Assembly (NCBI GenBank): GCA_964632415.1
Contig: CAZWDM010000008.1
Span: forward strand, 7,098 to 71,097
Length of the DNA: 64,000 nt
Direction: 5' to 3'
DNA from: an uncultured Dehalococcoidia bacterium
GTDB lineage: Bacteria; Chloroflexota; Dehalococcoidia; Lucifugimonadales; JADFKI01
The first letter of the stretch is position 1; each line of letters starts with the position of its first letter. Position numbers and translations under genes: made by a program. A model generated the notes under the pieces. That model saw only the letters and a list, made by a program, of their open reading frames with translations, did no database searches and was not told the DNA's origin. Of the stretch, positions 30,607 to 64,000 are shown piece by piece.

Positions 30607-30636
30607 TTGACAAATAAGATCGATAAGTTGTATGTT
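30607..30636 (+). promoter_or_regulatory. Sigma-70-like promoter candidate for the long plus-strand array
   Basis: TTGACA (30607-30612), 18-nt spacer, TATGTT (30631-30636). It sits 48 nt upstream of the first gene's ATG at 30684. Confidence 0.4.
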
Positions 30637-30683
30637 CCCGTTGCCAACTAGTTCTAGGTTTTTGGAAACGCGAAAGACAATTT

Positions 30684-31814
30684 ATGGGCATCTCCGAAGC
30701 GCAGCTAGCGCTTGTCGTCGTATCCGACGAGACCCCAAAGAACCTCCACCCACGCGAGTGGGCTGTCCTCCAGACCGGCCTCACGAACGCGCAGCGCGTG
30801 GCGCTCACCGCTCTCGCAAGCGGCTACGGCGGCTTCCAGCTCGAGTACGGCGAGTTCTACATCGTAGAGGCTCGTGTCGCCGAGTACCTGTCAATCTCCT
30901 ACCGCACATTCCGCAACTACCTGACCGACCTGCGCAAGCTAGGACTGCTTGAGCTTGTCTCGCGCAGCCCGAACCAGTATGGGAGGCGGAGTGTGTGGCG
31001 CATGAGGCTTGATGTGACGTGCAGGACGGCACAGGTACATCTGCCGCTCCTTATCGAGGACGAAGCGTCTCTGGCGGATGCCGTCTTGGAAGAGCTTGAT
31101 CCGGCTGTCGAAGCCAGCGAGGACGGCGTTGAGAGTGACGTAGACGCCGATTGGGAAGCCAGAGATGAGAGTGAGGTCGGCAGCGAATTGCAGATCGAGG
31201 ATGAGCAGCTCCGGGAGTCGGAGATGCCGGCGCCTTCGGCAGCGCATCTCTGGTCTGACAGCGAACACGAAGCGTTCGTCAACTCGGAGACGGAGCGATT
31301 GCTCTCAGAGGGAATTATGGCGATTCGGAGTGAAGTCCGTGTGAGCAGGGCGAAATTTGAGGCGGGTAGGCGGGCTCTTGAGTTGAAGGAGCGTCGGTTA
31401 AGGGCCGGTTTCAGGAGCGACGTGGCGGTTGGTCCGGCGCCTGCAGCGCCTGTGTGGGATTTGCCTCGTGCTGAAAAACGCAGGAGAGAAAAGGCCGAGA
31501 GGAAGGCCGCTCACGACACGCCGTTGCTGGTCGCGCTCAAGGAAGCGCTCCGTGCGCGGGGTCTGGCGGCTCTCAGCAGGGCGGATCGCAGGAAAGCCCT
31601 GAAAGTGGACAGGGAATGGAGGGACACGCATGGCTCGTATGTCCCTGACGATGTGACAGCCGATGCAGTGGAAATCGCGGACGAAAGGGCCAGGACAAAT
31701 TTTGCAGGACTGGTGATCAAGGTTATATCGGACAGACTTGACAGCTACACCACCGGGGGATGGAAGGAACAGTTGGGCGGATTCGGGGCGAGGCAGAAGA
31801 GAACACGTTACTAG
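30684..31814 (+). CDS. Hypothetical protein with an N-terminal winged-helix-like region; first gene of the transfer array
   Basis: LSISYRTFRNYLTDLRKLGLLELVSRS looks like an HTH/wHTH. The acidic middle and Arg/Lys-rich coiled C-terminal half are otherwise unrecognised. Confidence 0.5.
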   Translation: MGISEAQLALVVVSDETPKNLHPREWAVLQTGLTNAQRVALTALASGYGGFQLEYGEFYIVEARVAEYLSISYRTFRNYLTDLRKLGLLELVSRSPNQYGRRSVWRMRLDVTCRTAQVHLPLLIEDEASLADAVLEELDPAVEASEDGVESDVDADWEARDESEVGSELQIEDEQLRESEMPAPSAAHLWSDSEHEAFVNSETERLLSEGIMAIRSEVRVSRAKFEAGRRALELKERRLRAGFRSDVAVGPAPAAPVWDLPRAEKRRREKAERKAAHDTPLLVALKEALRARGLAALSRADRRKALKVDREWRDTHGSYVPDDVTADAVEIADERARTNFAGLVIKVISDRLDSYTTGGWKEQLGGFGARQKRTRY

Positions 31815-31831
31815 GTGAGAGGTGTAGCACT

Positions 31832-32392
31832 ATGACATCGATGGCTGAAACGAAAATGCCGGAGGGCAAGGAACTCGATCTGGCAATGATGAGAGCCGCC
31901 AGGGGTTTGGACCAGTGGTTCAGGGATCGCCTGCCGGACGACGAGCCGGAAACGGGCACTGGTTCATACGAGGACATCCTGGAGCTCCTCCACGAAGCCT
32001 ACAGACTCAGCAGGACCGAGGACTTCGAGGAGAGGACGACCGATCTGCAGAAGATGGTCTGTTGGCAGTACAACGAAATGGTGCGGCTCTGCTCGGATGG
32101 CGCAAAGCCGGCAGCCGCCTTCACCTGGGTGATGATAGTCCCCGAGATGCTGAAGCGAAGTCCGGGGGTAGAGTGGCTGGTGAACGCGCTGGAGCCTATG
32201 TCATTCGATATTGAGGACGGCCTGTTCATCTTCGGCACTGATAACTCTGACGATGCCAGGCGGGTGATGGCTGAATTCATTCCGATACTGCGATGGGGCA
32301 TCAGCACGATGTTCCCCAGCCAGGCCGGCATAACGATTGAGGTTTGGGATAACAACATCAACGTCTGGACAGACGAACTGACAGCAGCATAA
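31832..32392 (+). CDS. Hypothetical protein (186 aa)
   Basis: The ATG at 31832 follows the stop of the upstream gene (31814). Ordinary composition, no motif recognised. Confidence 0.5.
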   Translation: MTSMAETKMPEGKELDLAMMRAARGLDQWFRDRLPDDEPETGTGSYEDILELLHEAYRLSRTEDFEERTTDLQKMVCWQYNEMVRLCSDGAKPAAAFTWVMIVPEMLKRSPGVEWLVNALEPMSFDIEDGLFIFGTDNSDDARRVMAEFIPILRWGISTMFPSQAGITIEVWDNNINVWTDELTAA

Positions 32393-32720
32393 CTCCACGT
32401 CTTAAGCACTAGCAAAGATGTACTCGCGTCCATTAGGGGAGTGTGGATCTGATGGGTGCAGGCGGTAGTCCCGTGACAGTAAAGGTCGTATTCAGAAGAC
32501 GCACGGTGGACGGTTCCGTTCGCCAGGGCGTTACTTTCAACACCAGCTCCGCAGGAGCAGCCCACGCCGGGCGCACGCTTCAGCCGTGTGAACGGGCGCG
32601 AGGGGGCTGTGAATGCGGAGTTTTGCTGTCACCCGTGCCTTGGGAAGCTGCGAGTGTCGTTAGCGACTCGAGCACGTACACCTGCGGTCCTCAACTCATA
32701 GCCAAGCACGGAGGATCGGA

Positions 32721-33104
32721 ATGTTGTTGACGGGCACAGACTGCCCCAAATGCGGGGGCATGCTCACCGACAAGGTCGATGAGGCGGAAAAGCTGCGCTG
32801 CATCTATTGCGGATGGCGCAGTTACGCCGACAAGTTTAGTTCGCCCAACGAGAAGGGCGAATCGTTTCACCTGAAGCTGCCCTATGTCGGCGGCAACGAG
32901 TACGGACAGAGACAGCGCAGGATGCTGGTCGCGCAAATCACCGGAGGCAACAGCGCCTACCTGACACTGCGGGTTCTCTGTCCCTTCTGCACCCTAGAAA
33001 GGCTCGAAATGGACAGCCTGAAGGCGCGTCAGAGGTGGGTGTGCGCCAAGGGGCACTTCATAACGCTTGAGCGAAAAGGCACAGAGTTCACCGGATGGTA
33101 CTGA
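32721..33104 (+). CDS. Double zinc-ribbon protein
   Basis: CPKCGG..(18)..CIYCGW, then a second CPFC..(22)..CAKGH. The stop overlaps the start of the next gene. Confidence 0.5.
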   Translation: MLLTGTDCPKCGGMLTDKVDEAEKLRCIYCGWRSYADKFSSPNEKGESFHLKLPYVGGNEYGQRQRRMLVAQITGGNSAYLTLRVLCPFCTLERLEMDSLKARQRWVCAKGHFITLERKGTEFTGWY

Positions 33105-36100
33105 ACCGCAGGCCCGTGAGGGCCTTGGTCACGCGCACTGCGGGTGCGGTCCTATTGGTCGCGCTCTTTGTTCTGTTTGCCATCGAGCCGCACACTGCGG
33201 CAGCCCAGACTCCGCCAGCAGAGGAAACGGAACCAACCAAGACTGGCCTCGGAGACTGCGACAACACTATGCGGGTCGGGGTGTTGAACGACGACTTCAA
33301 CACGTTGCCTGAAGACCTGGTTACAAGGCATGGCAACGGCGGCTTCGAGGCGGTGATCGTTACCAACTGTATCCCGGTCACGATCAACTTCTATGTTGTG
33401 AACAATGTCGGTGCTCGTGTGCCCTTCGCGGAGGGAAAGGTGTCAGTTGGGGACGCCTTTGATGAGGTGGAATGGCTTGACATCAGTGAGATCGAATATG
33501 AGAGGCACGACTCTGACGTCTACGAGGGTGACCCGCCCCGGCTGAAATTCCGTGCGGGGTCTCCAGTCCTGGACGACAACGGCAACGCCATCCCGATACC
33601 GCCGGCGGACGATGAGGCCGTCACCGCCTACAGATACACGCTCGAATATCCCAACGAGGCGGTCAACATCGGTGGCGACAACAGGCGACCGCTCGTCGCA
33701 GAGCAGGACTATGCGATGGTCTTCGAGATCACGCCCTTTGATGGTGCTCCGGATAATTTCATACATGAGTTCACCTTCGAGGTCATAGCCAAGATAGGCG
33801 GGCAGTGGTGGGACAAGCTGCTCCGGATCGCAACGCCGACCTACTGGGTTGAGAGCGCGTGGAACTTCGTCACTTCAGGAGGGGCGCAGGGCGTGATGGG
33901 TGGAATGTGCGTCGTGACTACCCGGTTCATGAGACCGTCAGAGATTGTCGCCCTGGATAGATATGACTCGGATGGAGACGGGCGCCTGACAGAAAATGAT
34001 GACTTTGTAGATGGTGCCAACGACCCTAATGTGCAAAATGCCAACGGCAACTGCAAGCGGCCACAGCAGACACCCGAGGAGGAACTGGAGACGATCAGGA
34101 CTGCGGCGTTCATCGACGTGAACGAACGCCGTGCGATAGCGGGCCTGCCGCCGCTGGAACCCAATCGTCGAAGTGACTATGTCAGTGAACTGTTGGACGG
34201 GCGTGAGCGCGAGCCGTCGGAGGAATCGGTCGGCTCAGGCATATCGTTCGGGCTTGACCACCTCACGCTTGCGCCGCGAGTCGTGCTTGATAAGGCAGGA
34301 ATGGCTCCACCAGCCTCAATCACGGGCGGGGGAATCACGACTTTTACAGGACTGCTGACCGGCACTCCGCCCGAGCTTACCTACGAGCGCGGAATCGTCC
34401 GTCTGGGCTGGTCGGCCATGATGAACGTGATGGTCGCGGTGCTTGGCCTGATGATTGCCTGGATCGGATTCTCGCAGATCATCCGGAGCTTCACGGGCAA
34501 CCAGAGGGGGATGGCAGACTGGCGCGAGCTCATTCCGCGTCTGGTGCTCGCAATCCTGGCGGCTCTCACGTCCTACTGGTGGTGCAGCCTGCTGGTGGAT
34601 GTGGCCGATGGCATCTCCCGATACATCGCGGCGACCATGCGCGTAACGCCGGCAGACATCACTCTGACCCTCGGGCAGGCTGTGCTGGCGATTGTTATCA
34701 GGAGCGCGGGATCTTACGCCCTGAGCTTCATACCACTTGCGGGACTGCTGGCCCTGGCGATGAAGATGATGATGAACTTCCTCATCCTTGTCCTGATGAT
34801 CAGCTACTCGCTGATGCTGCTCATGATGATTGGCCAGTTCGTCCTACGCATCGTGATGATCAACCTCATGATTATTCTGTCGCCGTTGGGCATGATCATG
34901 TGGGCGCTGCCGGAGACATCGGCCTGGGGCAAGAAGTGGGTGCATGAGTTTGCGGTCGCTCTGCTCACACATGGGCTGCAACTTGTCTGTTTTGCCTTAT
35001 CGACCTGGTTCATCAGGGAGGCGACGCCTGTGGGTGTCGTCTTCGACACGGGTAGCTTCCCGAGTGCCCTGCAATCGCTGTTGCCGACACAGATGATATG
35101 GGCGCTGGCGCTCGGCACGATGGCGGCGTACCTGACTACGAAGATACCTGGCATGCTGGGCAGCAGCGTCTATGAGGGGTTCCAGAGCATGTTCGCGATG
35201 GCGGCTGTTGGTGCGCTTGCCCTCACGAGCGGCGGTGCAGGTGGTATGGGGGGGGTCGGGAGAATCATGGGTGCGCTCGGTGGACCCGGTGGTGGGGGAG
35301 GAGGAGGAGGAATGCCAAGTCTTCCAGGCGCTTCTCCATTGCAACAGGGTATATTCGCCGCGGTAAGCACGGGCAGTCGCCATGCCGATATGGCAATGTC
35401 CGGCGTAGGGCGTATGGTTAGTAATGCGTTTACCGGCAACAGAGGTTCACCAAGCTCACCAAGTTCGTCAAGTGTCATAAGTTCGCCGTCCGGCGCGCCT
35501 CAGATGCCCACTCCAAGCGCAGCTCCGTCGAGTGCAGCGCCTTCAAGCGTTGCGCCGTCCACCGGTCCGGGAGCGGGAAGTCCCGCGCCGACACCTTCAG
35601 TAAGAGCAAGGCCGATTCCGGGTGGAGCCAACTGGTTCCCGCAGGGACGGCAATACTACCAGCCACAGCGCGGACAGCCTGCAGGCATTCCCACTCCCCA
35701 GGGTCAGGGCGATACGGGTGCAGCTTCCTCTCCCCACTTCACACCGGCGGGTTCGTACCAGTCCCCTATTCCACCACGACCCGAAGGTATGACTGATGAG
35801 GAACGAATACACTCGGTCATGCCCTCGAACTACCAGCCGACTCCGGGATCGTCCGCGGTTAGTCAGTTCTACGTGCGTGAGCAACAACCGGGCGGCGGGA
35901 GCAGCGTTCGCCCGACAACCGGCTGGGAGCGTGCACTTATACGCGAAATGGGTGTTGGCGGCTTCAACCAGGGCTTGTCGAACATTGGTGGCGGCGCGCC
36001 TTCGTCCCAAGCGGTATCAACATCACAGGCTGCTCCCACGCGGCCTGCTCCGAGCCAGCTGCCAAATTACCAGCAATACAGCGGAGTTCGTCAGGGACTC

Positions 36101-37528
36101 GGCGTGCGCTTCGAGCAGGCGCGGCAGAACAACCTGCAGGCGCTCGACAACTCCGGGCATCTGGTTTCGGAGGGCGGACGTAGCAGAGTTGCGAGTCCCC
36201 AGGAGCGTAGTCTCATCCGGCAGTTCGGCATGGGCGCGTTCAACAGTGTGCTGCAGGGATACCAGCCACCCGGAATGAGCAGGCCGGCGCAGCGGTCCCA
36301 GGCGGTTCAGGGAAGGCCGTCCACGTCTGCAGCTGCGCCCGCACAACCGTCAGCAGGTCCCACGCTGACGGATTATCCCGAGGGTACGTCTGACACCGCG
36401 ATCTTGATGAACGAAACCGGCATGAGCATGGCGGACATCCAATCGCGCGCCCAGTCGGGATTCAGGGCAATAAATGCCGGCTGGACAACCGAGAGCTATC
36501 CGGTGGTTGTTCCAGGAACGAACGAGCCGCGGCTGGACGCCGAGGGTAATCAGGTCTATGCGACGCGGATGCGTGGCACAACTGCTCAGGAGAGAGCCGC
36601 AATAGAGAACATGGGAACCGATAGGTTCAACGCCGTGTTCGAGCCGGGTGGTGTCAGGGGTACGGAGACTGCTCGGGCGGGTGAGCAGGGTGAGCAGGCG
36701 CAGCAACAGCGGGAGGCCAGAGGTAGAGGCGTCGCTTCGGGTATCGGACAGAGGATAGTCCGGGCCGGACGGGACTTCAGGGAGGGATACACCGAAGCCG
36801 GAAGGCAACTCAATCCGATGACAGTGACGGACGCACGCACGGGGCGTGTCACACAGGAGACGGCTGACGGTATGAGGGCGCGGGACATACTTGGCCCCGA
36901 GTTCAACCACGTCGCTGGGCGACGCGTCAGTTATGAGCAGGAAGGGACCTGGATCAACGAGGGTGGCCGCCTGGTCAACATGGACTTCGACAGCGACCGC
37001 GACATGTCCTCTGAGCGCCGTGTCCGCGAGGCTTTCGGTGATGATGCCGCGTATTCCCACCACCTTGCAAATGACATCAGGCTTGATGACAGCGGTGCGA
37101 TAGACCCGCAGACCAATCTGCCCTTCGTGGTTGAGAACAGGAGCGCGGAGAACTCGGGAATACGCTCGGCGACCGAGGCGGAAGCGGCGGCGATCAGGTC
37201 TGCAGGGGTCGAGGCATTCAACCGGACGGGAGCGGGCAGACGCGAGTTCATGGGACAGGGCGTTCTGGCAAACGACGAAGGCGTGCGCCGGCTGGCTACC
37301 AGCCGCGAGCAGGAGCTAATAGGCAGGACAAGCCTCGAAAGAGCGAATGTTATTGGGCAACGTCAGATTGCAGTTGACGAATCAACCGCAACACAACAGC
37401 CCTTCCGTGGAGCAACACGGGCTGACGAGATAATGGGCGCAGGTGACGGGTCAGGAACCGGCAGCGGTGGCAACGATGCTGATACAAACTTACCTCGTTC
37501 GGCAAGGGAAGGGCCACCACAGCAGTAG
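33095..37528 (+). CDS. Giant (1477 aa) polytopic membrane protein, VirB6/TrbL-like channel candidate with secreted N-domain, Gly/Pro/Ser-rich linker and repeat-bearing C-terminal domain
   Basis: Signal peptide AVLLVALFVLFAIEPHTAAAQ. A cluster of about 7 TM helices spans roughly 34380-35250 (for example MINLMIILSPLGMIMWALPETSAWGKKW, which resembles the TrbL/VirB6 core). A GGPGGGGGGGG run and a P/S-rich region follow, then five E-R-x-x-I-x-x-x-G-x-x-x-F-N repeats. Confidence 0.55.
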   Translation: MVLNRRPVRALVTRTAGAVLLVALFVLFAIEPHTAAAQTPPAEETEPTKTGLGDCDNTMRVGVLNDDFNTLPEDLVTRHGNGGFEAVIVTNCIPVTINFYVVNNVGARVPFAEGKVSVGDAFDEVEWLDISEIEYERHDSDVYEGDPPRLKFRAGSPVLDDNGNAIPIPPADDEAVTAYRYTLEYPNEAVNIGGDNRRPLVAEQDYAMVFEITPFDGAPDNFIHEFTFEVIAKIGGQWWDKLLRIATPTYWVESAWNFVTSGGAQGVMGGMCVVTTRFMRPSEIVALDRYDSDGDGRLTENDDFVDGANDPNVQNANGNCKRPQQTPEEELETIRTAAFIDVNERRAIAGLPPLEPNRRSDYVSELLDGREREPSEESVGSGISFGLDHLTLAPRVVLDKAGMAPPASITGGGITTFTGLLTGTPPELTYERGIVRLGWSAMMNVMVAVLGLMIAWIGFSQIIRSFTGNQRGMADWRELIPRLVLAILAALTSYWWCSLLVDVADGISRYIAATMRVTPADITLTLGQAVLAIVIRSAGSYALSFIPLAGLLALAMKMMMNFLILVLMISYSLMLLMMIGQFVLRIVMINLMIILSPLGMIMWALPETSAWGKKWVHEFAVALLTHGLQLVCFALSTWFIREATPVGVVFDTGSFPSALQSLLPTQMIWALALGTMAAYLTTKIPGMLGSSVYEGFQSMFAMAAVGALALTSGGAGGMGGVGRIMGALGGPGGGGGGGGMPSLPGASPLQQGIFAAVSTGSRHADMAMSGVGRMVSNAFTGNRGSPSSPSSSSVISSPSGAPQMPTPSAAPSSAAPSSVAPSTGPGAGSPAPTPSVRARPIPGGANWFPQGRQYYQPQRGQPAGIPTPQGQGDTGAASSPHFTPAGSYQSPIPPRPEGMTDEERIHSVMPSNYQPTPGSSAVSQFYVREQQPGGGSSVRPTTGWERALIREMGVGGFNQGLSNIGGGAPSSQAVSTSQAAPTRPAPSQLPNYQQYSGVRQGLGVRFEQARQNNLQALDNSGHLVSEGGRSRVASPQERSLIRQFGMGAFNSVLQGYQPPGMSRPAQRSQAVQGRPSTSAAAPAQPSAGPTLTDYPEGTSDTAILMNETGMSMADIQSRAQSGFRAINAGWTTESYPVVVPGTNEPRLDAEGNQVYATRMRGTTAQERAAIENMGTDRFNAVFEPGGVRGTETARAGEQGEQAQQQREARGRGVASGIGQRIVRAGRDFREGYTEAGRQLNPMTVTDARTGRVTQETADGMRARDILGPEFNHVAGRRVSYEQEGTWINEGGRLVNMDFDSDRDMSSERRVREAFGDDAAYSHHLANDIRLDDSGAIDPQTNLPFVVENRSAENSGIRSATEAEAAAIRSAGVEAFNRTGAGRREFMGQGVLANDEGVRRLATSREQELIGRTSLERANVIGQRQIAVDESTATQQPFRGATRADEIMGAGDGSGTGSGGNDADTNLPRSAREGPPQQ

Positions 37529-37599: not shown

Positions 37600-38160
37600 G
37601 TGTTTGAGAACGGCATTGGTGTAGAGCAGTTACAAGTCGCTCATGCTCTCAGCCAACTGGTCATTCCAGTGGGCGACGTAGCTCCATCGGTGGCAAACCA
37701 GGCGGGTGAGACGGGGGTGGATACTCTCTTCAACATAATCGAGCTTGGCACCCGCATCTTCATTGGCTTGCTCACGTCTGCCGCCGTACTTTACGCAGGT
37801 TGGGGAGGCTTCTTGTTGATGAGATCTGCTGGCAACCCGCAGATGCTCGAAAAGGCCAGGATGCAGGTCATTCTGGCGCTTGTCGGAGTGGGCATCGGTG
37901 TGTCGGCGTTCCTGCTTGTCGGAACGGCGATTGACTTCATCTCGGGAGCGTCCGGCGGCACGGTCGTTGATGTGGGTGATGTGAGCAAGGTCAACAACAC
38001 GGGCAGGCAGGTGCCGCCGGGTAGCTTCCTTGGCATATATGGGGGTGAGGCCGTTCTATGCCCGAATTCGGATCCAGGGTGGAGCGCGAGCGTGAGACCT
38101 GAAGTGTTTGCAGCCTGGGGTTGGGCTGCTGGACCACCTGTAGTTTGCACTAGTAAGTGA
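37600..38160 (+). CDS. VirB2/TrbC-like pilin candidate A with Cys-bounded C-terminal extension
   Basis: GTG start with AGGAGG RBS. Two-helix hairpin IFIGLLTSAAVLYAGWGGFLLMRSAGNPQMLEKARMQVILALVGVGIGVSAFLLVGTAI (TM - short basic loop - TM, as in TrbC/VirB2 and T4SS_pilin families). About 70-aa C-terminal tail with two Cys (AVLCPNS..., ...VVCTSK). Confidence 0.55.
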   Translation: MFENGIGVEQLQVAHALSQLVIPVGDVAPSVANQAGETGVDTLFNIIELGTRIFIGLLTSAAVLYAGWGGFLLMRSAGNPQMLEKARMQVILALVGVGIGVSAFLLVGTAIDFISGASGGTVVDVGDVSKVNNTGRQVPPGSFLGIYGGEAVLCPNSDPGWSASVRPEVFAAWGWAAGPPVVCTSK

Positions 38161-38203
38161 ATTTAACCAAATAGTGCCCCTTAACAGGAACAGGAGGTAA
38201 GAA

Positions 38204-52727: not shown

Positions 52728-53025
52728 GGGCTGGGTGTTGACGCAGCTGGTCATTTCGGGGCTGATATGTTCGGTTTTTACGGGACTCGCGATTTATGAA
52801 GGTGTCCGCATATTCGGTGAAGCAGACGGCGACGCCCGAAGCATCCTGCTGGCAATAGTGTGCGCCAGCGGCAGTTTCACCTGGTTCACCTGGTTTCTGT
52901 ACCAGAACAACGAGGGTGGAAACGCCTGTATATGTGATCGGTTCTACTGGCTCTTCAACAAGAGATTGCCGCTACTGGGGAAGACATACCGTTGGATCAA
53001 GGAGTTCAGTCGGAACGAAGGTTGA
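52720..53025 (+). CDS. Small integral membrane protein (101 aa)
   Basis: The ATG at 52720 overlaps the upstream stop. Helices WVLTQLVISGLICSVFTGLAIY and SILLAIVCASGSFTWFTWFLY. Confidence 0.4.
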   Translation: MDRGWVLTQLVISGLICSVFTGLAIYEGVRIFGEADGDARSILLAIVCASGSFTWFTWFLYQNNEGGNACICDRFYWLFNKRLPLLGKTYRWIKEFSRNEG

Positions 53026-53201
53026 TGTTGGAATGGAAGAGTCCGGAATAGTTGAAGGGAAATGCATCCACCTGCAGGTGCCGGACGAGTGCATCCATTG
53101 CCTGTACTCGATGAGAAGGCAGGCGCTCAGGCTGATACTGGTCATCTGCTTGAGCATCATTCTCATGGCGGGTCTTGCTTTCCACTCAATGGGGTGACGA
53201 A

Positions 53202-56602: not shown

Positions 56603-58326
56603 TGCCTGAGCCTGCTGACATCACTGTTGGGCAACTGCTGATGACTCTCTCGCAGTTGCCTTTTCTCTCTGCTGACGAGATTTCAACACTGATCGACTTC
56701 GATGCCCGTGAAGTCAGAGCTGACCTGAAAGTGGCGCAGTGTAATAGACTCGTTGGTTCTGTGCAGTACCGGCGCTCGCCGTCCGTCACTCTGAGACGCT
56801 GGTACTTGACGCGCGAAGGTACGCTGATTGCTGCCAGGGAAGAACGCACGACTCCAGAGCGACACTTGTCGCGCAATCCCGTCAGCACGGAGTGGCAGCG
56901 CTCGCTGCTCCGCAGGCTGGATGCGGTTGACGTGCTCTACCGGATGCTTCACGAGATGGTGCAGTTCACCGGAGATACCCCGGAGTGGGCCTGGCATCGT
57001 GACGGTCCATTCGATGCGGCGGTCAGGTTCCCGGACGGCAGGCGTTTCGTTGTGATGCGGCTGGGCAGCACGCTCTCATGGCAGGCGACCAAAAGCAGGC
57101 TTGGTTCGCTGTATGAAGGGCAGAACCAGCGAAACGCGCCAATCGCGCTGGTCATTGTGCCGGGCGACATAGAGAAACGGCGCATCACGACGCTTCTGAA
57201 GCACCGTGCAATCTACATGCATATAGCCGCAGAGAGCGTGCTGAGCGAGCGGGGCATGAATGCCCCAACCTGGGAGCCTGTCGGAACGGAGCTGCGCGAC
57301 ATCACGCTGGAAGCCATTCTGCGGAGGTCGCGCCGCAGGGGACGAATTCCGGCGCGTCCACGTCACTATAACGACAGGCTGCCGTCACAGGACATTCACG
57401 AGAACATAACGAGTGTTAATTTCTTAGCGAGCGAGCTTCGGCCCGCCGAGCGGCAGATGTTGCGACTGCTGTACGACTGGCCACTCGGCAGAAGTGAGGA
57501 GTTGGCAAGGATTCTCGATGTGTCCATTGATAGCTTGTACCAAAAGCAGGCATCTCTTCTGAGGCGCAACCTCATCCACAAGGTCGAGATCGGGGAATCG
57601 TACCGGGAGCGCCGCGAGAACGGCACACGGCTCGTCCTGACCGAGGATGGACGACGAGCGTTGGCCTGGACGGACCGCAGAGACCTCTCGGACCTGACAC
57701 GCCACTGGCAGCTCACAGCAAGCGGGGAAGATGACCCCAACCCGAAGATGAAAGTCAAGGTTCGCGGCTTCCGGGTGGACGGCACAAAGCTGCGTCCCCT
57801 CATCAGTCAGCTGCGTCACACCGACGCCGTGAGTGAAATCACGGCGATGTTGACAGTGGAAAGCAGGACTCACTCGAACTACCGGCTGGTACAGGCGGTT
57901 CCGCCGCATCGCTGGGAGAGGGTGTTTTGGTTCAACGGCAGACGGGCGCAGATCAGCCCAGATGCGACATACATGCTGGAGTACCAGGGAGAGACTGAGG
58001 TGAACTTCCTTGAGTACGAGGAGCGAGCAGATAGGCCGTCACGCATGAGGTCGAAGATCCGAGGGCATGAGAGCTACTTCGGGGCATTCGAGACCGAAGG
58101 CGACTTCGACGACGTTCTGCCGAGGGCGCTCTTCGTGTTCAGAAACGTAGAGACCGCGAGCAGATTCGGCGTATTTCTGATGAATGAAGGGACGGCGCGA
58201 ATGCCGCTTGTCGTGTCGAGCATGGATGTGTTGAGGCGCGAGGGCTTTTTCGGCAATAGCTGGACCTGGCCCTGGGAGCAACAGCGAGGGCCGGTGCCGC
58301 TCTCGGCACTGCGACGGTCGAGGTGA
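56602..58326 (+). CDS. Replication-relaxation family protein, internally duplicated (two wHTH + nuclease-like modules); relaxase candidate
   Basis: The start overlaps the T4CP stop (TGATG). The second half has LRHTDAV..., ISPDATYMLEYQGETEVNFLEYEERADRPSRMRSKIRGHESYF, matching the H ... PDa ... E.E/D..t.....K...Y layout of the replication-relaxation family. The first half repeats the order (wHTH, YLTREG, PFDAAVRFPDGRRFVVMRLGSTLS) with the acidic block lost. Confidence 0.55.
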   Translation: MPEPADITVGQLLMTLSQLPFLSADEISTLIDFDAREVRADLKVAQCNRLVGSVQYRRSPSVTLRRWYLTREGTLIAAREERTTPERHLSRNPVSTEWQRSLLRRLDAVDVLYRMLHEMVQFTGDTPEWAWHRDGPFDAAVRFPDGRRFVVMRLGSTLSWQATKSRLGSLYEGQNQRNAPIALVIVPGDIEKRRITTLLKHRAIYMHIAAESVLSERGMNAPTWEPVGTELRDITLEAILRRSRRRGRIPARPRHYNDRLPSQDIHENITSVNFLASELRPAERQMLRLLYDWPLGRSEELARILDVSIDSLYQKQASLLRRNLIHKVEIGESYRERRENGTRLVLTEDGRRALAWTDRRDLSDLTRHWQLTASGEDDPNPKMKVKVRGFRVDGTKLRPLISQLRHTDAVSEITAMLTVESRTHSNYRLVQAVPPHRWERVFWFNGRRAQISPDATYMLEYQGETEVNFLEYEERADRPSRMRSKIRGHESYFGAFETEGDFDDVLPRALFVFRNVETASRFGVFLMNEGTARMPLVVSSMDVLRREGFFGNSWTWPWEQQRGPVPLSALRRSR

Positions 58327-58394: not shown

Positions 58395-58533
58395 TGGGTC
58401 AAAGTGGGTCAATCGTGTCAACTGGGTCAAAGTGAGCCTGTACATTAAATTACTTAGGTGGGTCATTGCGCAGGAGAGGCTGTGTGGCGCTTGGGCGCGG
58501 GGCGTGTGGGTGGGTCAAAGGAATGGGTCAATG
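58395..58533. repeat. Cluster of TGGGTCAA(A/T) direct repeats in the intergenic region after the relaxase candidate (candidate oriT/protein-binding array)
   Basis: Copies at 58395, 58405, 58423, 58511 and 58524. Variants are GTGGGTCATT at 58458 and CGTGTCAA at 58415. All are on the same strand. Confidence 0.6.
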
Positions 58534-58724: not shown

Positions 58725-61244
58725 ATGAGCAAGGAGGACGGCAGTATGACAGAGGGGGAGCGGCGGGAACGTGCGGAGCAGTGGTTGCTCGCGCAGCTCG
58801 CTGACGGCAAGAGTGGCAGGGAGATTGCCAGGATGTTGGGTGGAACCACGAATAACCAGCTCGTGAATCGACCGCTCAGAGAGTGGCGGCGGACGGGTGA
58901 GATGGAGCTGCGTGGGCGCCTGTTAACGCTGATCACAGAGTTGCTTGACGGGACTGAGAGCGGTGGGGGCCGAAATGGAGCAGGTGGGGAGGAGGCAGCC
59001 CAGCCCCCAGCGGAGCCCAGCCCTGCCGATGAGATGACGGGAGAGGAGGGTTTTGCGGCGCCTGGTGGGGTTAAGCCCGTTGTTGGTAATCCCGATGTGC
59101 CACAAGTGGAGACTGATGCCCGCGAGGATAAGGCGGGTGACGCGTCACCTAGCTCTCCTATCGGCACGACGCCTGTGGAGCAAAGCACGGAAGAAGCAAC
59201 AGCTGAGCACATGTCGGCGGGTGGCACTGATGACGGGACAGCTGACACTGAGCCGGCCAGCAGCCAACCTGAGGACGACGAAACTCCGAAGCCCGTGAGG
59301 GCCACAGGCGGCATGGGGTCTAATCGACGACGTAACGAGCGGCGGGCGCGGGAGGTCGAGCGGCGACGCAGGGTCGCTCTGGTCGAGCAGGTCGCGAATG
59401 CGACCGTGCTGCCGCAGTTGACCGCGGTGCTGGCCCAGGTGGGCAACCGGCTGCTGTTGGATGAGTATCCTCCCTTCGGCTCGCCGTCGTCTGTTCCGAC
59501 GGAACGCCAGAGAAAGCAGGTGTTGGCCGCGATAGTCGGCGCACCCGTGTTGAGGCTGTTGCCGATGGAGCAGGCGGTAGAGGTCGCGAGACTGCAGGTC
59601 ACCGGACGTCTCACGATGCTCACCGCGCCGGAGGATCTGGGCGGAGACGCACTCAGGATGCTCCTATCGGGAGAGGGAGGAGAGACGGAATTCAAGGACG
59701 AGGGCGCGCTCGCCGTCGCTTTCGGCGTGGGCGACGAGACCTTCGGCTTGGAGACCCCGGGCGGGCTGTATCGTTGGGGACTGGGCACGGAGCTGCGGCA
59801 GCGGCGCTACGCCTGGTCGGAGCACTTCGGACGTCCCGCGCTGATTGGCGGCCGGGAGAGCGGCGTGATAAGGGACGCGCCCTACCGGGACGAGGACTGG
59901 TTCTTCGGCTCTGCCGGCTGGACTGACGAGGACGGGAAGTGGCGTCCGGGACGACACGAGGTGATAGCGCGCTGGCGGTTGCTGCGGGAGATGTACGACG
60001 CCTTCGGCGCACTGGAGGGTCAGGAGGTATGGCACTACGCGCTCTACGAGGCCCGAGCCGAGTTGGAGCTTACGCTCCTGGGCGACAGCTACGCGATGAC
60101 ATTCGACAGGCTGATCCTCGGCGTTGCGGCGTGGCCGCGGTCCACGCGGGAGGGCTTCGAGACGAGGGGACGGGCCATCCAGATCGAGGCCAACAGAAAA
60201 AGAGCGAGACAGGGTGGTAAGCGCAGGTGGCGCAGGCGGCGTCTGCACAGGCTATGGAGCTGGATGGGCGCGACATGTCGCCGGATGGTTCTCGACATTC
60301 GCCTGAGTGACGCTGTGGTCGCCGGGCGTGACGGCTCCGATGTGGTACAGGAGGAGAACACGCCTGACGCCGCAGTGGAGGTAACGAAGACGAACGGGAC
60401 AGCGGTGGATGTGGCTAAAGCAGCGTCAGGCACAGAGGGGGACCACCGCAACGCCGTTGGCATGGGTGATGGTGAGGAGGTTGACGGCGCTGATGATGTT
60501 GACACTGATGTTGACGCTGACGCGGGTGTTGACGCGAACGCCAACGCAGCCGCGGATGCCGAGGAACGTAACGGGAGGAATGACGCGGCTCGGGACGGGA
60601 AGGCCCTGCGCGTTCTGGAGCGGGGATGCAGGCGCGGAGGTCTGCTCGCCCTGGTGAACTGGGCGCGATTCCCTTATCTGTACGACGAGGTTGAGCGGCA
60701 GGGCTGGTTCACCAAGAAGGTGAGCTGGTGCCTGTACAGGCGGCACTCCGAGCTTGACGGCAGCGTGTGCGGTCTGCCCGGGGACAGGTGGCGGGCGCTG
60801 GAGCCGCCGCTTGCGCCCGAGTACATGACGCCGACGCCGCGCACGGGCCACGTGCCCTCGGAGGCGTTCCGCCGCAGGTTCCGCCCGCACGAGAACGACC
60901 CGGACTACGAGCCACCCGAGCCGCCGGAGGAGAAGTTGTCCTGGTGGCGCAGGGGATTTAGGAGAAAGCGAGCACGGGCGCAGCAAGGTTCGGGAGAAGG
61001 CGACAGCACCGTCAAGGCGCCGAGCGTATCGCGGTGGCGCAGGCTGCTCGGAAGAGGCAGGAAGAAGGAAGATCCTCAGTCGAGGCGAGCCGACGCGACG
61101 AACGACACTGCGGTGGCTGAGGGGCCGGGAGACGGTGCTTCCGAGACTCGGACGCTTGACACCGGAGTGAATCAGAATGGCAGGAGCGCAGAGGATGAAC
61201 ATACAGCAGTGCCTGGACAACCACAGGCTGGAGATCGAGGTTAG
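58725..61244 (+). CDS. 839-aa orphan protein with N-terminal HTH-like segment, acidic/low-complexity inserts and basic patches
   Basis: GKSGREIARMLGGTTNNQ is HTH-like. Central globular region (..YRWGLGTELRQRRYAWSEHFGRPALIGG..). A DVDTDVDADAGVDANANAAADAEE repeat. A basic RKRARQGGKRRWRRRRLHRLW patch. No enzymatic motif recognised. Confidence 0.5.
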   Translation: MSKEDGSMTEGERRERAEQWLLAQLADGKSGREIARMLGGTTNNQLVNRPLREWRRTGEMELRGRLLTLITELLDGTESGGGRNGAGGEEAAQPPAEPSPADEMTGEEGFAAPGGVKPVVGNPDVPQVETDAREDKAGDASPSSPIGTTPVEQSTEEATAEHMSAGGTDDGTADTEPASSQPEDDETPKPVRATGGMGSNRRRNERRAREVERRRRVALVEQVANATVLPQLTAVLAQVGNRLLLDEYPPFGSPSSVPTERQRKQVLAAIVGAPVLRLLPMEQAVEVARLQVTGRLTMLTAPEDLGGDALRMLLSGEGGETEFKDEGALAVAFGVGDETFGLETPGGLYRWGLGTELRQRRYAWSEHFGRPALIGGRESGVIRDAPYRDEDWFFGSAGWTDEDGKWRPGRHEVIARWRLLREMYDAFGALEGQEVWHYALYEARAELELTLLGDSYAMTFDRLILGVAAWPRSTREGFETRGRAIQIEANRKRARQGGKRRWRRRRLHRLWSWMGATCRRMVLDIRLSDAVVAGRDGSDVVQEENTPDAAVEVTKTNGTAVDVAKAASGTEGDHRNAVGMGDGEEVDGADDVDTDVDADAGVDANANAAADAEERNGRNDAARDGKALRVLERGCRRGGLLALVNWARFPYLYDEVERQGWFTKKVSWCLYRRHSELDGSVCGLPGDRWRALEPPLAPEYMTPTPRTGHVPSEAFRRRFRPHENDPDYEPPEPPEEKLSWWRRGFRRKRARAQQGSGEGDSTVKAPSVSRWRRLLGRGRKKEDPQSRRADATNDTAVAEGPGDGASETRTLDTGVNQNGRSAEDEHTAVPGQPQAGDRG

Positions 61245-61689
61245 CGACAGCCTTGCGACACAGGAGGTCGTGATACGGAACATCGACATATTCGAGGCCT
61301 GGGACCTCTACAGCATGCTCAAGGTCATCGAGCCAATGGCCGACCTCAAGACCAGGATCAGGTCCAGAGACGGCAGGGGCTACGAGCTGGGACTGATCTA
61401 CACACAGCACCTCAAGCGGGCTCTTGACAGCTACCAGAAGGCCGCAGTCCGGCGCAAGCACAGCGGCAGCGTCGCCTGCACTCTCATAAGCGTCGTGACG
61501 CGTCGCAGTCTCATGCCCATCATCGATGCATGGGACGGTGGCCGGCCGCAGGAGCTGACACGCAGGGAGCGCATGTGCTTCGTCCGCGACTACGAGCAGA
61601 TAGTCCTGAGGACCGAGAGGCTGATGGAGCTGCTGCAGGACATCCTGAGAGTCAACAACGACACGGACAACCTGATAGAGGATTTCTAG
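61195..61689 (+). CDS. Hypothetical protein (164 aa)
   Basis: MNIQQCLDNHRLEIEV... has ordinary composition. The ORF-track start at 61177 overlaps the upstream gene. Confidence 0.4.
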   Translation: MNIQQCLDNHRLEIEVSDSLATQEVVIRNIDIFEAWDLYSMLKVIEPMADLKTRIRSRDGRGYELGLIYTQHLKRALDSYQKAAVRRKHSGSVACTLISVVTRRSLMPIIDAWDGGRPQELTRRERMCFVRDYEQIVLRTERLMELLQDILRVNNDTDNLIEDF

Positions 61690-61701
61690 GAGGAGAGGCC
61701 A

Positions 61702-62391
61702 ATGCATACCGAGATAGTGGCACGGCCGGGCTTTGCCGCGCTTCGGGCGCAGCTCAAGACGGGAGAGTCGATCATGGCGGAGCCGGGCGCGATGATGGTG
61801 CATCGCAATACACACATGAGCACGGGCGCCGCCAGGGGCGGTTTCATGAGCGGAGTGCGGCGGCTCCTTGCGTCGGAGTCGTTCTTCCTGAACAAGTTCA
61901 CCGGCATAAACGAGGACCGCGAGATATACCTGACGCCATCGGTGCCGGGCGACATCCAGGACCACGCGCTAGAGCCGCACTCCGAAATCATCCTGCAGTC
62001 CGGCGCGTTCCTGGCCTGCACGGAAGCCGTCACGGTGGACACGCGCTTTCAGGGCGTGCGGGGCATATTCAACCGAGAGGGAATGTTCTTCCTGAGAGCG
62101 CACACGCAGGAGGCGGGCGGCGACGTCTTCTTCCACACCTACGGCGCGCTGATCGAGTTGGAAGTGACGGCAGAGACTGCGCTCTACGTGGACAACGGCC
62201 ACCTCGTGGCGTTCACGCAAGGTGTGGACTACAGCCTCGACAGGGTGCGGGGGCTGAAGCCGCTGCTGCTGGGCGGAGAGGGCATCGTGCTGCGCTTCGA
62301 GGGAGAGGGCAGCGTCTGGGTACAAACGCGGGAGCTGAGAACGTTCGCCGCGCAGCTCGTACCGTTCCTACCGACAGACAAGAGTTCCTAA
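61702..62391 (+). CDS. AIM24/TIGR00266-family protein
   Basis: LKTGESIMAEPGAMMVH, then FFLNKFTG, and GEGIVLRFEGEGSVWVQTR at the C-terminal end. These are characteristic of the AIM24 (DUF124) beta-rich family. GGAGGAGAGG RBS. Confidence 0.65.
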   Translation: MHTEIVARPGFAALRAQLKTGESIMAEPGAMMVHRNTHMSTGAARGGFMSGVRRLLASESFFLNKFTGINEDREIYLTPSVPGDIQDHALEPHSEIILQSGAFLACTEAVTVDTRFQGVRGIFNREGMFFLRAHTQEAGGDVFFHTYGALIELEVTAETALYVDNGHLVAFTQGVDYSLDRVRGLKPLLLGGEGIVLRFEGEGSVWVQTRELRTFAAQLVPFLPTDKSS

Positions 62392-62415
62392 GAAAGTCAC
62401 AGACGGAGGTCATCA

Positions 62416-62922
62416 ATGGTATTCAAACAACTAGCTGGCTGGGTGCGCGCGGTTCGCGGACTAACCCTGACCACGACGGTGCCGTCCCAGGCTTTACCGA
62501 TGGTCTGCGCGTCTCCCTGTGATGATGACATGGTGGAAGCCGAAGCACGGGCTATTGATGCAATGGTAGAGGCGGCACGGAACGACAAGGGCCAGGTGCA
62601 ATGTTACCGGTGCGGACGGGAGATGGCAGAGGGCGGCTACGGAGTATCGCTGATGGGCCGCGGAGCAAGCTGCCTCGACGTGCCGGATTGCATCGCAGAC
62701 GTCACGAGACAGCAGGAGACCGGTTCCGCCCGTTTCGTAAACTGTGCCTATTGCCTTAGAGAATTACCCATCACTCAGGTCAAAATACATCCGTGGAAAG
62801 GATCACTTTCTTGCATCGACACCGACGGTTGCGAAGAAGAACAGCGAGCTTTGGACGATCTCTTCCGAAAATTCAAGGAGAAGTACCCAAACGGCACCCC
62901 GCCAGGCGGCGGCACTCTATGA
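62416..62922 (+). CDS. Cys-rich hypothetical protein (168 aa)
   Basis: Paired cysteines QCYRCGRE, CLDVPDC, NCAYCLRE and SCIDTDGC suggest zinc-binding or treble-clef modules. Confidence 0.4.
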   Translation: MVFKQLAGWVRAVRGLTLTTTVPSQALPMVCASPCDDDMVEAEARAIDAMVEAARNDKGQVQCYRCGREMAEGGYGVSLMGRGASCLDVPDCIADVTRQQETGSARFVNCAYCLRELPITQVKIHPWKGSLSCIDTDGCEEEQRALDDLFRKFKEKYPNGTPPGGGTL

Positions 62923-62949
62923 AAACGATATCAAGAAAGGACACGCACT

Positions 62950-63186
62950 ATGCGAAACATACTCCCGGCCGCACTCGGAGCGGCTAGCGGATTCATCATT
63001 GGAGTCGCGCTGACGACCTGGATACAAATCGGGCAGAGACGGGCGTTGCGTCCTCCAGCCGCAGGCGGGGGCACGCCTATGCCGCTCCCGCCAGGAACAC
63101 CGGCAACGCGAGCTGGCAGCCAGAGCGCCCTGAAGAACGAGCGGATGGACGCAAACGCGCGACAAGCGAGTCAACGCAGGACGTAA
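62950..63186 (+). CDS. Possible small membrane protein (78 aa)
   Basis: N-terminal helix ILPAALGAASGFIIGVALTTWI followed by a basic/Pro-rich tail. Weak. Confidence 0.3.
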   Translation: MRNILPAALGAASGFIIGVALTTWIQIGQRRALRPPAAGGGTPMPLPPGTPATRAGSQSALKNERMDANARQASQRRT

Positions 63187-63395
63187 GCGGCTCAATCGCC
63201 GAGGAACGAGGAGAAAGGCGCTCATAGTCCATCGGAGGGTAAAAGAGCCTGAGAGGGCCAGAAATCGCTCCTGGAGGCTGTGAGAGGGCACAGAGAGGCG
63301 GCTGCGGGCGACAATTTTGCGCCTACGGCGCGTCCAGTAGGGAAGAGTGATTTAGTGGGCTTACGCTGTCAAGCAGCCCAGGAAGGTCAGGAATC

Positions 63396-63740
63396 TTGAG
63401 GAACCCACATCGGCGAGGCCGCCGTGCCCGCGCAAGGCGGCCATACCTTCGTGGCGATCGGTGGGTGAAGACCGGCGGCACGGTGCAGTCCAGGCGGCAG
63501 GCACTCAGGGAGAAGAGCTGTCTGGGCAAGAAGACATTCCGCAGTTTCTCGGAGGCCGCCGCCGTCATCAAGGAGCACCGGGCCCGCTACGTCCTGGCCG
63601 AGACGGGCGAACTGAACATATACAGGTGTCCATTCGGGAAGCACCTGCATATCGGACATAACTGGCCACTCAAACACTTGGAGGAACTGGTTCAGGACTT
63701 CCCGATGGAAGTGATTGAGCAGGCAGGGGGTCGCGAATGA
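63396..63740 (+). CDS. Small basic protein with a C-terminal Cys/His knuckle
   Basis: SCLGKKTFRSFSEAAAVIKEH...IYRCPFGKHLHIGH. The true start is probably internal. Confidence 0.35.
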   Translation: MRNPHRRGRRARARRPYLRGDRWVKTGGTVQSRRQALREKSCLGKKTFRSFSEAAAVIKEHRARYVLAETGELNIYRCPFGKHLHIGHNWPLKHLEELVQDFPMEVIEQAGGRE

Positions 63741-64000
63741 AAGCTACGCTGGGCATACTGCTCCCGGTCGCCATGATGGTATCGTTCACCGTGCTGCTTA
63801 CGGGCTGGGTGCTCGTACTCCTGCATAATCCCGAGGCTTCGACACTGGAGGTCGCGACCGAGCTCGCCACGCAGCCAAGAGAAACCTTCAAGAGAGGTGT
63901 GCCGGTGTTACCTGACCCACCTGAATCCTCCCCAACCCCCGCACCTCTACTGGCAAGCACGGTTTTGGTGCTCGCCGGATTTGTAGGAATGGTCTGGTTC
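63737..64000 (+). CDS. Membrane protein, partial (runs off window end)
   Basis: The ATG at 63737 overlaps the upstream stop. MKATLGILLPVAMMVSFTVLLTGWVLVLL ... LLASTVLVLAGFVGMVWF. Confidence 0.4.
   Translation, partial: MKATLGILLPVAMMVSFTVLLTGWVLVLLHNPEASTLEVATELATQPRETFKRGVPVLPDPPESSPTPAPLLASTVLVLAGFVGMVWF

Follow-up and report, generated by a model that had tools for sequence, protein, structure and literature searches.

The prototypes of the MPF-FATA class (MPF, mating-pair formation) of type IV secretion systems (T4SSs) are the Prg/Pcf system of pCF10 and the Tra system of pIP501, and the class also includes systems of integrative conjugative elements (ICEs) of Mycoplasma and of archaeal plasmids. 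A second point of reference is the plasmid NZ_CP108778 of Embleya sp. (Actinomycetota), which carries, in this order, genes for a hypothetical protein of 753 amino acids (aa), a PrgI family protein, an XF1762 family protein, an ATP-binding protein, a T4SS conjugative DNA transfer protein, a replication-relaxation protein and an NlpC/P60 protein. To our knowledge, this actinobacterial type of module has not been characterised experimentally. Regarding DNA processing, the MOB-C relaxases include MobC of CloDF13 and TraX of the Enterococcus plasmid pAD1. TraX, their prototype, combines an N-terminal winged helix with catalysis of the PD-(D/E)XK type and binds five direct repeats located 70-120 bp from nic (PMC12857230). 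The original MPF classification paper makes no mention of Chloroflexi or Chloroflexota (PMC3548315), and our literature searches returned no description of T4SSs or conjugative elements in Dehalococcoidia or Chloroflexota. Here we analyse a 64-kb stretch of DNA from an uncultured Dehalococcoidia bacterium (contig CAZWDM010000008.1; hereafter, the window), in which the locus from 30684 to the window end is likely, with a probability that we place at roughly 0.8, to be the transfer operon (mating-pair formation and DNA processing) of a conjugative mobile element. The Dehalococcoidia, SAR202 included, are uncultured and are reported to be prevalent in marine subsurface sediments and in the dark ocean.

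The locus resembles the MPF-FATA systems in its monoderm-type VirB4, PrgI/VirB3 module, probable polytopic VirB6-like protein, VirB2-like hairpins and VirD4-type coupling protein, and also in that none of the outer-membrane components VirB7, VirB9 and VirB10 was detected in it. In contrast to these systems, its VirB4 reaches 214 bits against a family cutoff of 325, with at most 30% identity to plasmid homologs, searches detected neither a PrgK/TraG-type hydrolase nor a VirB8-like protein of the PrgL/TraM type, PrgI continues into a beta ectodomain of 580 aa, the VirB6-like protein of 1477 aa bears an ectodomain and a disordered repeat tail, and the relaxase is MOB-C-like, not MOB-P or MOB-Q. 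Nevertheless, the core, composed of VirB2-like, VirB3/PrgI, VirB4, VirB6-like, VirD4-type and MOB-C proteins, is the standard monoderm set.

With the Embleya module the locus shares an identical order of five core genes (VirB6-like, PrgI, VirB4, coupling protein and relaxase), in both cases with a small gene between those for PrgI and VirB4, and the SCO6880-family clusters of Streptomyces are related. Hidden Markov models (HMMs) of the window families match the Embleya proteins with E-values of 1.7e-12 (VirB6-like), 1.5e-8 (PrgI), 1.4e-104 (VirB4), 1.8e-53 (coupling protein) and 2.5e-8 (relaxase), and both the PrgI fusion and the N-domain of VirB4 in the window match the NCBIfam model SCO6880_fam. 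The two systems differ in that the Embleya plasmid has an NlpC/P60 wall hydrolase gene directly 3' of its relaxase gene, where the window has that of an 832-aa orphan; the Embleya relaxase is a single module of 331 aa, whereas that of the window is a tandem duplication of 574 aa; and the Embleya PrgI and VirB6-like proteins are half as large, the VirB6-like protein of the window having an extra tail. Moreover, in the window PrgI is fused to an ectodomain, the coupling protein has an N-domain of its own, and about 20 window genes are without counterpart in Embleya. An initial annotation, made by reading the sequence, had called the locus a divergent and largely undescribed lineage; the divergence is upheld by a VirB4 that shares at most 30% identity and lies below the NCBIfam cutoffs, but a separate lineage of unknown kind is at odds with the standard monoderm core and the Embleya gene order.

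Core genes of the operon and their relatives

All coordinates are positions in the window, and gene starts are those called on identical public contigs where available. Between 30684 and 64000, 34 genes are read from the plus strand with a coding density of 96.5% and just three gaps longer than 100 nt, and the gene train runs on past the window end. Start/stop overlaps number 11, including ATGA at 40749, 42537 and 63737 and TGATG at 56602, and Shine-Dalgarno-like sequences precede most of the genes, all of which are intact and tightly packed. The G+C content of the window is about 59%, and the GC skew is positive in all 2-kb bins from 30 kb to 64 kb. Ahead of the first gene two elements are predicted, the promoter lying 3' of the hairpin:

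30554-30588, + strand: terminator-like hairpin of 11 pairs with a T-run, predicted by consensus match
30607-30636, + strand: sigma-70-like promoter TTGACA-18-TATGTT, predicted by consensus match

The segment 30554-30636 is predicted to be a transcription-unit boundary, and an operon start near 30.6 kb is supported by this consensus matching together with the first five operon genes, whose homologs are found in identical order in two relatives (loci L087 and L088). This layout agrees with the initial annotation, which had counted about 35 plus-strand open reading frames (ORFs) from a promoter at 30607, many of them with ATGA/TGATG overlaps; some of its gene starts had to be revised, for which the gene caller gives others (e.g. 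38929, 41137, 44042, 49039, 53202 and 58746). The genes on which the proposed reading depends are the following (TM, transmembrane):

33095..37528, + strand: VirB6/TrbL-like protein, 1477 aa, a probable assignment made indirectly (Embleya bridge, Foldseek)
37600..38773, + strand: tandem VirB2-like pilin genes (starts 37600 and 38204), 186 and 189 aa, two-TM hairpin with C-terminal extension
43050-43646, + strand: third pilin paralog, 198 aa (hhalign against the 37600 family, probability 98.5%, E 3.9e-15)
46785..49052, + strand: PrgI/VirB3-like fusion, 755 aa (Pfam PrgI, 28.3 bits against 27, at aa 21-100)
49039..49617, + strand: 192-aa protein with signal peptide and C-terminal TM hairpin, directly upstream of virB4
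49645..52113, + strand: VirB4-type ATPase, 822 aa (Pfam P-loop_TraG, E 1.7e-14, DUF87 and AAA_10, all above cutoff)
53858..56602, + strand: VirD4-type coupling protein, 914 aa (Pfam T4SS-DNA_transf, 26.8 bits against 20.1)
56602..58326, + strand: MOB-C-type relaxase candidate, 574 aa (Pfam Replic_Relax, PF13814, 36.8 bits against 25.3)

A VirB4-family ATPase, a coupling protein (VirD4 or TcpA type) and a relaxase from a known MOB family, when co-located, constitute the CONJScan triad of a conjugative T4SS, and all three are present here by Pfam. This triad and the monoderm core, recovered with Pfam and NCBIfam, bear out the initial view of a conjugation/T4SS locus, and the signatures then named for VirB4, the coupling protein, PrgI, the pilin hairpins and Replic_Relax were all found again by the same means. 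In VirB4 the Walker A motif ATSGAGKS occupies residues 498-505 and the Walker B pair D694-E695 is invariant across the family. Its best NCBIfam models are conju_CD1110 (Bacillota), to which the above 214 bits refer, and VirB4 of Mycoplasma ICEs (167 bits), followed by F-type TraC, VirB4/CagE and, weakly, the archaeal CedB (E 2e-5), and it stays below every NCBIfam cutoff. The best plasmid-borne relatives belong to Streptomyces/Embleya (Actinomycetota), Bacillota, Rubrobacter, Thermococcus and Sulfolobus, a taxonomic mix that is also that of the monoderm MPF-FATA class (PMC3548315). The nearest models and plasmid hits are monoderm and archaeal, all below family cutoffs, and the CD1110 model may represent the sister class MPF-FA. 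The coupling protein displays a Walker A motif (GKTRSGKS at 456), a Walker B pair (D716-E717), two TM helices and an unusual N-terminal cytoplasmic domain of 217 aa that is conserved family-wide, while Pfam TraG-D_C and TrwB_AAD_bind are slightly under their cutoffs.

The PrgI fusion is encoded one gene upstream of virB4. Its PrgI/VirB3 module (aa 19-100) contains two TM segments, and a third (aa 155-173) joins it to the 580-aa ectodomain, which is Cys-rich and all-beta in an AlphaFold model (pLDDT 51.3); this model is too poor for structural comparison, and its Foldseek matches were dismissed as noise. The model SCO6880_fam is split between two genes of the window, its N-terminal part matching the PrgI fusion (46785-47100, E 1.6e-4) and its C-terminal part matching VirB4 aa 288-435 (50506-50950), and the C-terminus of the Embleya PrgI-family protein (L086, 12326-13375) matches the VirB4 family HMM. 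Taken together, these matches suggest that a VirB4 N-domain-like segment may have moved between VirB3-like and VirB4 genes in different phyla.

The 1477-aa protein encoded at 33095, which the initial annotation had described as VirB6/TrbL-like, gave no direct match to any Pfam profile, yet the assignment is probably correct on two indirect grounds. The family HMM matches the 753-aa protein of Embleya, which in turn matches Pfam TrbL_4 (E 6.8e-6, 26.1 bits against a cutoff of 27), and the top three PDB matches of its AlphaFold model (pLDDT 56.6) in Foldseek are TrwI/VirB6 of R388 (E 0.02-0.04, probability 0.98-1.0). A precomputed PF19590 tag carried by homologs could not be reproduced in direct scans and was not used. 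The protein begins with a signal/TM helix, followed by a Cys-containing beta-sandwich ectodomain (aa 30-430) with a DxDxDG Ca-binding-like loop and by a helical membrane bundle (aa 430-690) that is conserved family-wide (aa 412-691 in profile searches). The tail of 788 aa (aa 690-1477; 35162-37528) is entirely free of lysine, whereas arginine makes up 10.5% of aa 890-1477; it starts with a Gly/Ser/Pro-rich disordered linker and repeats the motif [ST]xxERxLIxxMGxxxFN five times. For this protein and the PrgI fusion, PDB sequence and profile searches gave nothing below E 0.2.

All three pilin-like proteins fall under the gathering score of Pfam T4SS_pilin (26.6), with 25.4 bits (E 1.5e-5) for 37600, 25.5 for 38204 and 17.1 for 43050, and the tandem pair matches NCBIfam Mbov_0395, a pilin-like conjugal transfer protein of a Mycoplasma ICE, with E 2.6e-8 (33.4 bits against 40). 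The family is present in 79 of the loci compared below, and members elsewhere reach E 5e-13 with T4SS_pilin and E 9e-5 with TrbC/VirB2. The tandem genes (37587-38490) share, at their start, a 300-nt direct repeat of 89% identity that spans the upstream ribosome-binding region, as left by a recent tandem duplication. The 192-aa protein was considered as a fourth pilin, an idea that resulted from drift of the iterated HMM and is not supported by profile-profile comparison (hhalign probability at most 2%; Pfam T4SS_pilin E 0.1). In more distant loci, its position upstream of virB4 is filled by a pilin-like gene.

In order to find relatives, an alignment profile of VirB4 was run against species-representative genome assemblies and the matches were confirmed by tblastn, which gave at least 584 confirmed matches, whereas a scan with the single VirB4 sequence gave zero confirmed relatives. 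The best 80 of these at least 584 matches all come from Dehalococcoidia metagenome-assembled genomes, except for one SAR202 bin (L014) and one bin labelled Chloroflexi, and among the matches listed several chromosomes carry two or three copies. The close homologs of VirB4 (n=68) are metagenomic proteins, the few named ones coming from Chloroflexi/Chloroflexota, and an identical VirB4 with the same neighbour gene order occurs on contigs from several sequencing runs. When 10 kb of the locus was compared by megablast with 72,556 plasmids (PLSDB), no match was obtained.

Conservation was studied by tblastn and with iterated profiles in 81 loci, with 10 kb on each side of virB4. Of the families, seven stay together in 74-81 of these loci, namely the VirB6-like protein (74/81), the pilin-like protein, the PrgI fusion (78), the small membrane protein upstream of virB4, VirB4, the coupling protein (79) and Replic_Relax; relaxase and coupling protein genes directly follow virB4 in 76-79 loci, and the family as a whole keeps the catalytic motifs of VirB4, coupling protein and relaxase either invariant or with a conservation of at least 90%. 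The remaining genes, about 20, are limited to some ten loci (L001 and L006-L014) in which VirB4 is at least 52% identical to that of the window, and include those for both lipoproteins, the zinc-ribbon/TM protein, the bitopic 136-aa protein, the NYN-like pair, GPP34, the 832-aa and 164-aa proteins and AIM24. The comparison of syntenic loci that the initial annotation had proposed thus shows that most orphans are not family-wide components but are confined to about ten closely related loci. Arginine-rich "families" obtained by longest-ORF clustering of the 81 loci were out-of-frame artefacts and were discarded.

A decaying, non-functional remnant of a conjugative element could also be envisaged, since expected monoderm parts (a VirB8-like protein and a wall hydrolase) are undetected and since in L087 the PrgI fusion and the 192-aa gene are broken into pieces. 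In the window, however, 34 of 34 genes are intact, tightly packed and mostly provided with Shine-Dalgarno-like sequences, the catalytic motifs are preserved family-wide as stated above, and the orphans are kept at the protein level in about ten loci with 25-65% identity, which makes decay highly unlikely.

Relaxase and candidate origin of transfer

The initial annotation had seen no MOB-family relaxase, a view that has to be abandoned, because the protein encoded at 56602 carries Replic_Relax and this Pfam family (PF13814) is the MOB-C family, or MobC of CONJScan (PMC5357655, PMC12857230). The candidate consists of two tandem copies of one module, made up of a winged helix and Replic_Relax (N- against C-terminal half in hhalign, probability 98.2%, E 3.9e-14), and might by virtue of this duplication act as a built-in pseudo-dimer. 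The acidic motif P453-D454...E471-x-E473-x-R475 is found only in the C-terminal copy and is at least 90% conserved among 82 sequences, and positions 3-78 of the family HMM, at its N-terminal end, align with the N-terminus of the Embleya relaxase. Like TraX of pAD1, the window protein is predicted from its sequence to have a winged-helix N-terminus and a PD-(D/E)XK-like catalytic domain; the similarity is nonetheless at family level only, and the internal duplication is a difference.

Further support for a relaxase comes from repeats alongside its gene, in the 419-nt gap on its 3' side:

58395..58531, + strand: candidate origin of transfer (oriT), six direct TGGGTCAW repeats flanking the core CCTGTACATTA (58437-58447)

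TGGGTCAW has eight matches in the whole window, six of which fall inside these 137 nt. In the three nearest relatives the core CCTGTACA is kept at the same place while the repeats around it differ, being AGATTGTCATTTT (five copies) in L001, GGTGGAGCGC (six copies) in L006 and GTGTTGCAA (five copies) in L010. A conserved core with co-varying repeats is the expected look of an element-specific transfer origin, and we infer that the array is a candidate oriT with element-specific recognition. The arrangement parallels the oriT of pAD1, in which short direct repeats form a binding site away from the nick site (PMC12857230), although the repeats and core of the window are unrelated to any compared sequence. 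Alternatively, the array could serve the 832-aa gene that lies downstream as a promoter or origin controlled by iterons.

Relaxase and array also bear on the question of whether the T4SS might have been co-opted for protein or effector delivery, for DNA release or uptake, or for cell-cell attachment, as has been proposed for the essential T4SS of Patescibacteria. Such a role would account for the many unexplained extracellular proteins (two Ca-binding lipoproteins, large ectodomains and three pilin paralogs), would fit the weak match of VirB4 to CedB, a DNA-import protein, and has a precedent in Patescibacteria, which retain a similar monoderm core without relaxases (PMC12102498). We nevertheless consider it improbable, given the relaxase and coupling protein genes directly 3' of virB4 in 76-79 of 81 loci, the oriT-like array that adjoins the relaxase gene, and the hallmarks of self-transmissible elements seen in the family, i.e. 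tRNA-side insertion, several copies per genome and recombinases. A conjugative element, with this operon as its transfer region, remains our preferred reading.

Undetected components and clade-specific genes

Searches of the 34 genes with Pfam, NCBIfam and PDB (sequence and profile) detected no peptidoglycan hydrolase of the VirB1, PrgK, TraG or CwlT type and no VirB8-like protein with an NTF2 fold (PrgL/TraM type). The initial annotation had noted that a hydrolase and VirB8/9/10-like proteins were lacking, and these searches are in line with it. A Pfam census of 149 unassigned neighbour ORFs of 14 diverse loci recovered pilins, helix-turn-helix (HTH) proteins and recombinases, and a wall hydrolase was absent from the 25 most frequent Pfam families among them. 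VirB8 homologs are seldom detectable in the sister phylum Patescibacteria as well (PMC12102498). According to one survey, the genes for cell-wall synthesis (dcw) had already disappeared in the ancestor that Dehalococcoidales and the SAR202 cluster share (PMC10608941). One of the close-clade hosts is a SAR202 bin (L014); on these grounds many hosts of the family (Dehalococcoidales, SAR202) would be without peptidoglycan, and the absence of the hydrolase is plausibly adaptive.

The other genes of the operon, most of them confined to the close clade, are as follows:

30684..33104, + strand: four leader genes, encoding proteins of 376, 210 and 95 aa and a 127-aa double zinc ribbon, with homologs in L087 and L088
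38929..42219, + strand: membrane-anchored DUF3352 protein of 607 aa (Pfam DUF3352, E 2.3e-8), two-TM protein of 106 aa, and lipoprotein 1 (360 aa, lipobox LSSC)
42232..44069, + strand: 102-aa protein, zinc-ribbon plus TM protein of 163 aa, the third pilin, and bitopic membrane protein of 136 aa; found in 8-12 close-clade loci
44042..45059, + strand: two paralogous cytoplasmic NYN-like proteins of 180 and 156 aa with a predicted nuclease fold (Pfam NYN, E 2.5e-5, 25.3 bits against 24.2)
45130..46758, + strand: lipoprotein 2 (542 aa) with lipobox LLGC, Pro/Thr linker, Excalibur Ca-binding motif (Pfam Excalibur, E 4.1e-9) and Cys/Trp-rich C-terminal domain
52163..53840, + strand: four small membrane proteins (66, 113, 105 and 54 aa; TM segments) and a cytoplasmic GPP34/GOLPH3 protein of 212 aa (Pfam GPP34, E 1.9e-27)
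58746..64000, + strand: cytoplasmic orphan of 832 aa (HTH-like N-terminus), 164-aa orphan, AIM24 protein, ORFs of 168, 78 and 114 aa, and a gene cut by the window end
61702-62391, + strand: AIM24/TIGR00266 protein of the preceding line (TIGR00266, 188 bits; precomputed Pfam AIM24)

Upstream of the VirB6-like gene in both L087 and L088, homologs of the leader genes follow one another as in the window, with 30-48% identity; the 376-aa protein gives a weak winged-helix hint, and no Pfam or NCBIfam family was found for any of the four except a sub-threshold Zn_ribbon. Zinc ribbons are located at 32721 and 42537 and lipoboxes in the proteins encoded at 41137 and 45130. Among ten close-clade loci, the DUF3352 protein is found in L001 only, and otherwise in L088. 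Lipoproteins 1 and 2 have the Cys/Trp-rich C-terminal domain in common, with 15 related cluster representatives among 1.84 billion proteins, and the iterated profiles of the two NYN-like genes merge. The 832-aa protein is conserved in 9-10 close-clade loci and gave no Pfam, NCBIfam or PDB match; PDB profile and sequence searches with its family and with the lipoprotein family returned nothing below E 0.2. Likewise, Pfam (E up to 10) and NCBIfam were uninformative for the orphans encoded at 30684, 31760, 41137, 43659, 44589, 58746 and 61195 and for the ectodomain encoded at 46785. Pfam, NCBIfam and sequence features thus recovered the NYN, GPP34, AIM24 and Excalibur assignments, the zinc ribbons and the two lipoboxes, and the initial impression that most genes are orphans is confirmed with respect to Pfam, NCBIfam and the PDB (sequence or profile comparison).

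The GPP34 gene (53202-53840) lies between virB4 and the coupling protein gene, a position kept in L001, L006 and L010, and the position of AIM24 near the operon end is kept in the same three loci (in L001 by gene call). We know of no role in conjugation for either family.

Mobile-element context, proposed mechanism and significance

A position next to a tRNA gene is typical of ICEs. In L087 the homologous operon begins just after a tRNA cluster ending in an intact tRNA-Val(TAC), and in L088 just after tRNA-Ala. In the window, a tRNA remnant and a number of other features are found upstream of the operon:

29762..29812, + strand: 3' fragment of tRNA-Val(TAC), 51 nt, about 870 nt upstream of the operon (Rfam tRNA, 34.8 bits at 29739-29813)
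7508-7636: five to six tandem 22-bp iterons (CGTCCCATCAAnAC...), beside the 420-aa orphan gene
7702-8964, - strand: 420-aa orphan
9007-10221, - strand: AAA_25 ATPase
13185-13892, + strand: ParA
764-5974, - strand: 1736-aa fusion of DEAD-box and UvrD-type helicases, upstream cargo
17447-18142, + strand: protein with two PemK/MazF toxin stretches, upstream cargo
20331-23949, + strand: McrB/McrC restriction pair, upstream cargo

The fragment is without the 5' acceptor, D arm and CCA, and its 51 nt align at 88% with the tRNA-Val(tac) of L087; ARAGORN predicted no tRNA at 29739-29813, and no intact tRNA was found in the window. Relative to the operon, the fragment takes the place of the intact tRNA genes in these relatives. 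As only the 3' 51 nt of tRNA-Val are present, they are probably an attachment-site remnant, either attP or a copy of attL/R. In 26 more distant Dehalococcoidia loci (e.g. L018, L020, L024 and L032) a large serine recombinase is encoded about 8 kb downstream of virB4, shortly 3' of the relaxase gene and with small HTH proteins ahead of it, which suggests that the integration module differs between subclades.

The iterons, the 420-aa orphan, AAA_25 and ParA look like a replication/partition module of plasmid type. The whole window could therefore be a conjugative plasmid or an ICE in circular form, with the upstream 30 kb as maintenance and cargo arm and the tRNA-Val fragment as attP, a possibility to which we give somewhat less than even odds. 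Besides this module, the restriction of the tRNA to a 3' fragment with no intact copy in the window points in this direction, and so does the lack of any housekeeping gene found in the 64 kb, from which the window may be a plasmid or an excised ICE; in addition, short contigs carrying the replication module and contigs carrying the T4SS come from runs of the same two accession series and both occur in SRR8304772. The genes of the upstream 30 kb, however, were found near the T4SS loci of relatives in just two isolated matches, the closest relatives are chromosomal, and two islands in tandem at one tRNA-Val site would fit the window equally well.

For the conjugative element as such, we propose that the MOB-C-type relaxase would bind the element-specific TGGGTCAW repeats through its winged-helix modules and that its PD-(D/E)XK-like C-terminal domain would make its cut close to the conserved core CCTGTACA. 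The DNA would then be passed by the VirD4-type coupling protein, with its two TM helices as anchor, to a cytoplasmic-membrane translocon in which VirB4 is combined with the PrgI/VirB3 fusion and with the giant VirB6-like protein. On the outside, the three VirB2-like pilin paralogs would be assembled with the ectodomains of the PrgI fusion and of the VirB6-like protein, probably joined by the two Ca-binding lipoproteins and small membrane proteins.

Several points weigh against this proposal. The organism is uncultured, and it is from sequence data that we infer DNA transfer, the position of nic and what each of the orphan proteins does. The pilin, VirB6-like and some coupling-protein matches are at or under curated thresholds. 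No second copy of the 51-nt tRNA-Val segment was found in the window, in which the only tyrosine recombinase is encoded 14 kb upstream, and a recombinase serving the operon was not found. A VirB8-like or hydrolase fold may hide in one of the orphans, given that only two proteins were modelled, both with low confidence (pLDDT 56.6 and 51.3), and the argument from peptidoglycan is indirect for the host of the window itself.

More broadly, we may hypothesize, tentatively and with considerable doubt, that the Dehalococcoidia possess a monoderm T4SS variant of their own, suited to a peptidoglycan-free S-layer envelope, in which VirB8 and VirB1 would be dispensed with and replaced by lineage-specific parts: the fusion of PrgI/VirB3 to an ectodomain, a giant VirB6 whose ectodomain binds Ca and whose multivalent docking tail is devoid of lysine, Excalibur lipoproteins, and a pseudo-dimeric MOB-C relaxase reading element-specific iterons. 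If this is true, elements of this kind would be one of the main ways in which genes move within SAR202 and among other Chloroflexota that are abundant but uncultured.

A self-contained, relaxase-linked T4SS carried by Dehalococcoidia would provide a concrete vehicle for horizontal transfer in this class, including that of catabolic and defence cargo, and would extend the monoderm T4SS class to another phylum of Terrabacteria, beside the recently analysed Patescibacteria. The family could also serve as a natural experiment on which parts of a T4SS can be spared in the absence of a peptidoglycan wall, and the conserved core with swapped iterons beside the relaxase gene is a candidate for how MOB-C relaxases acquire oriT specificity.

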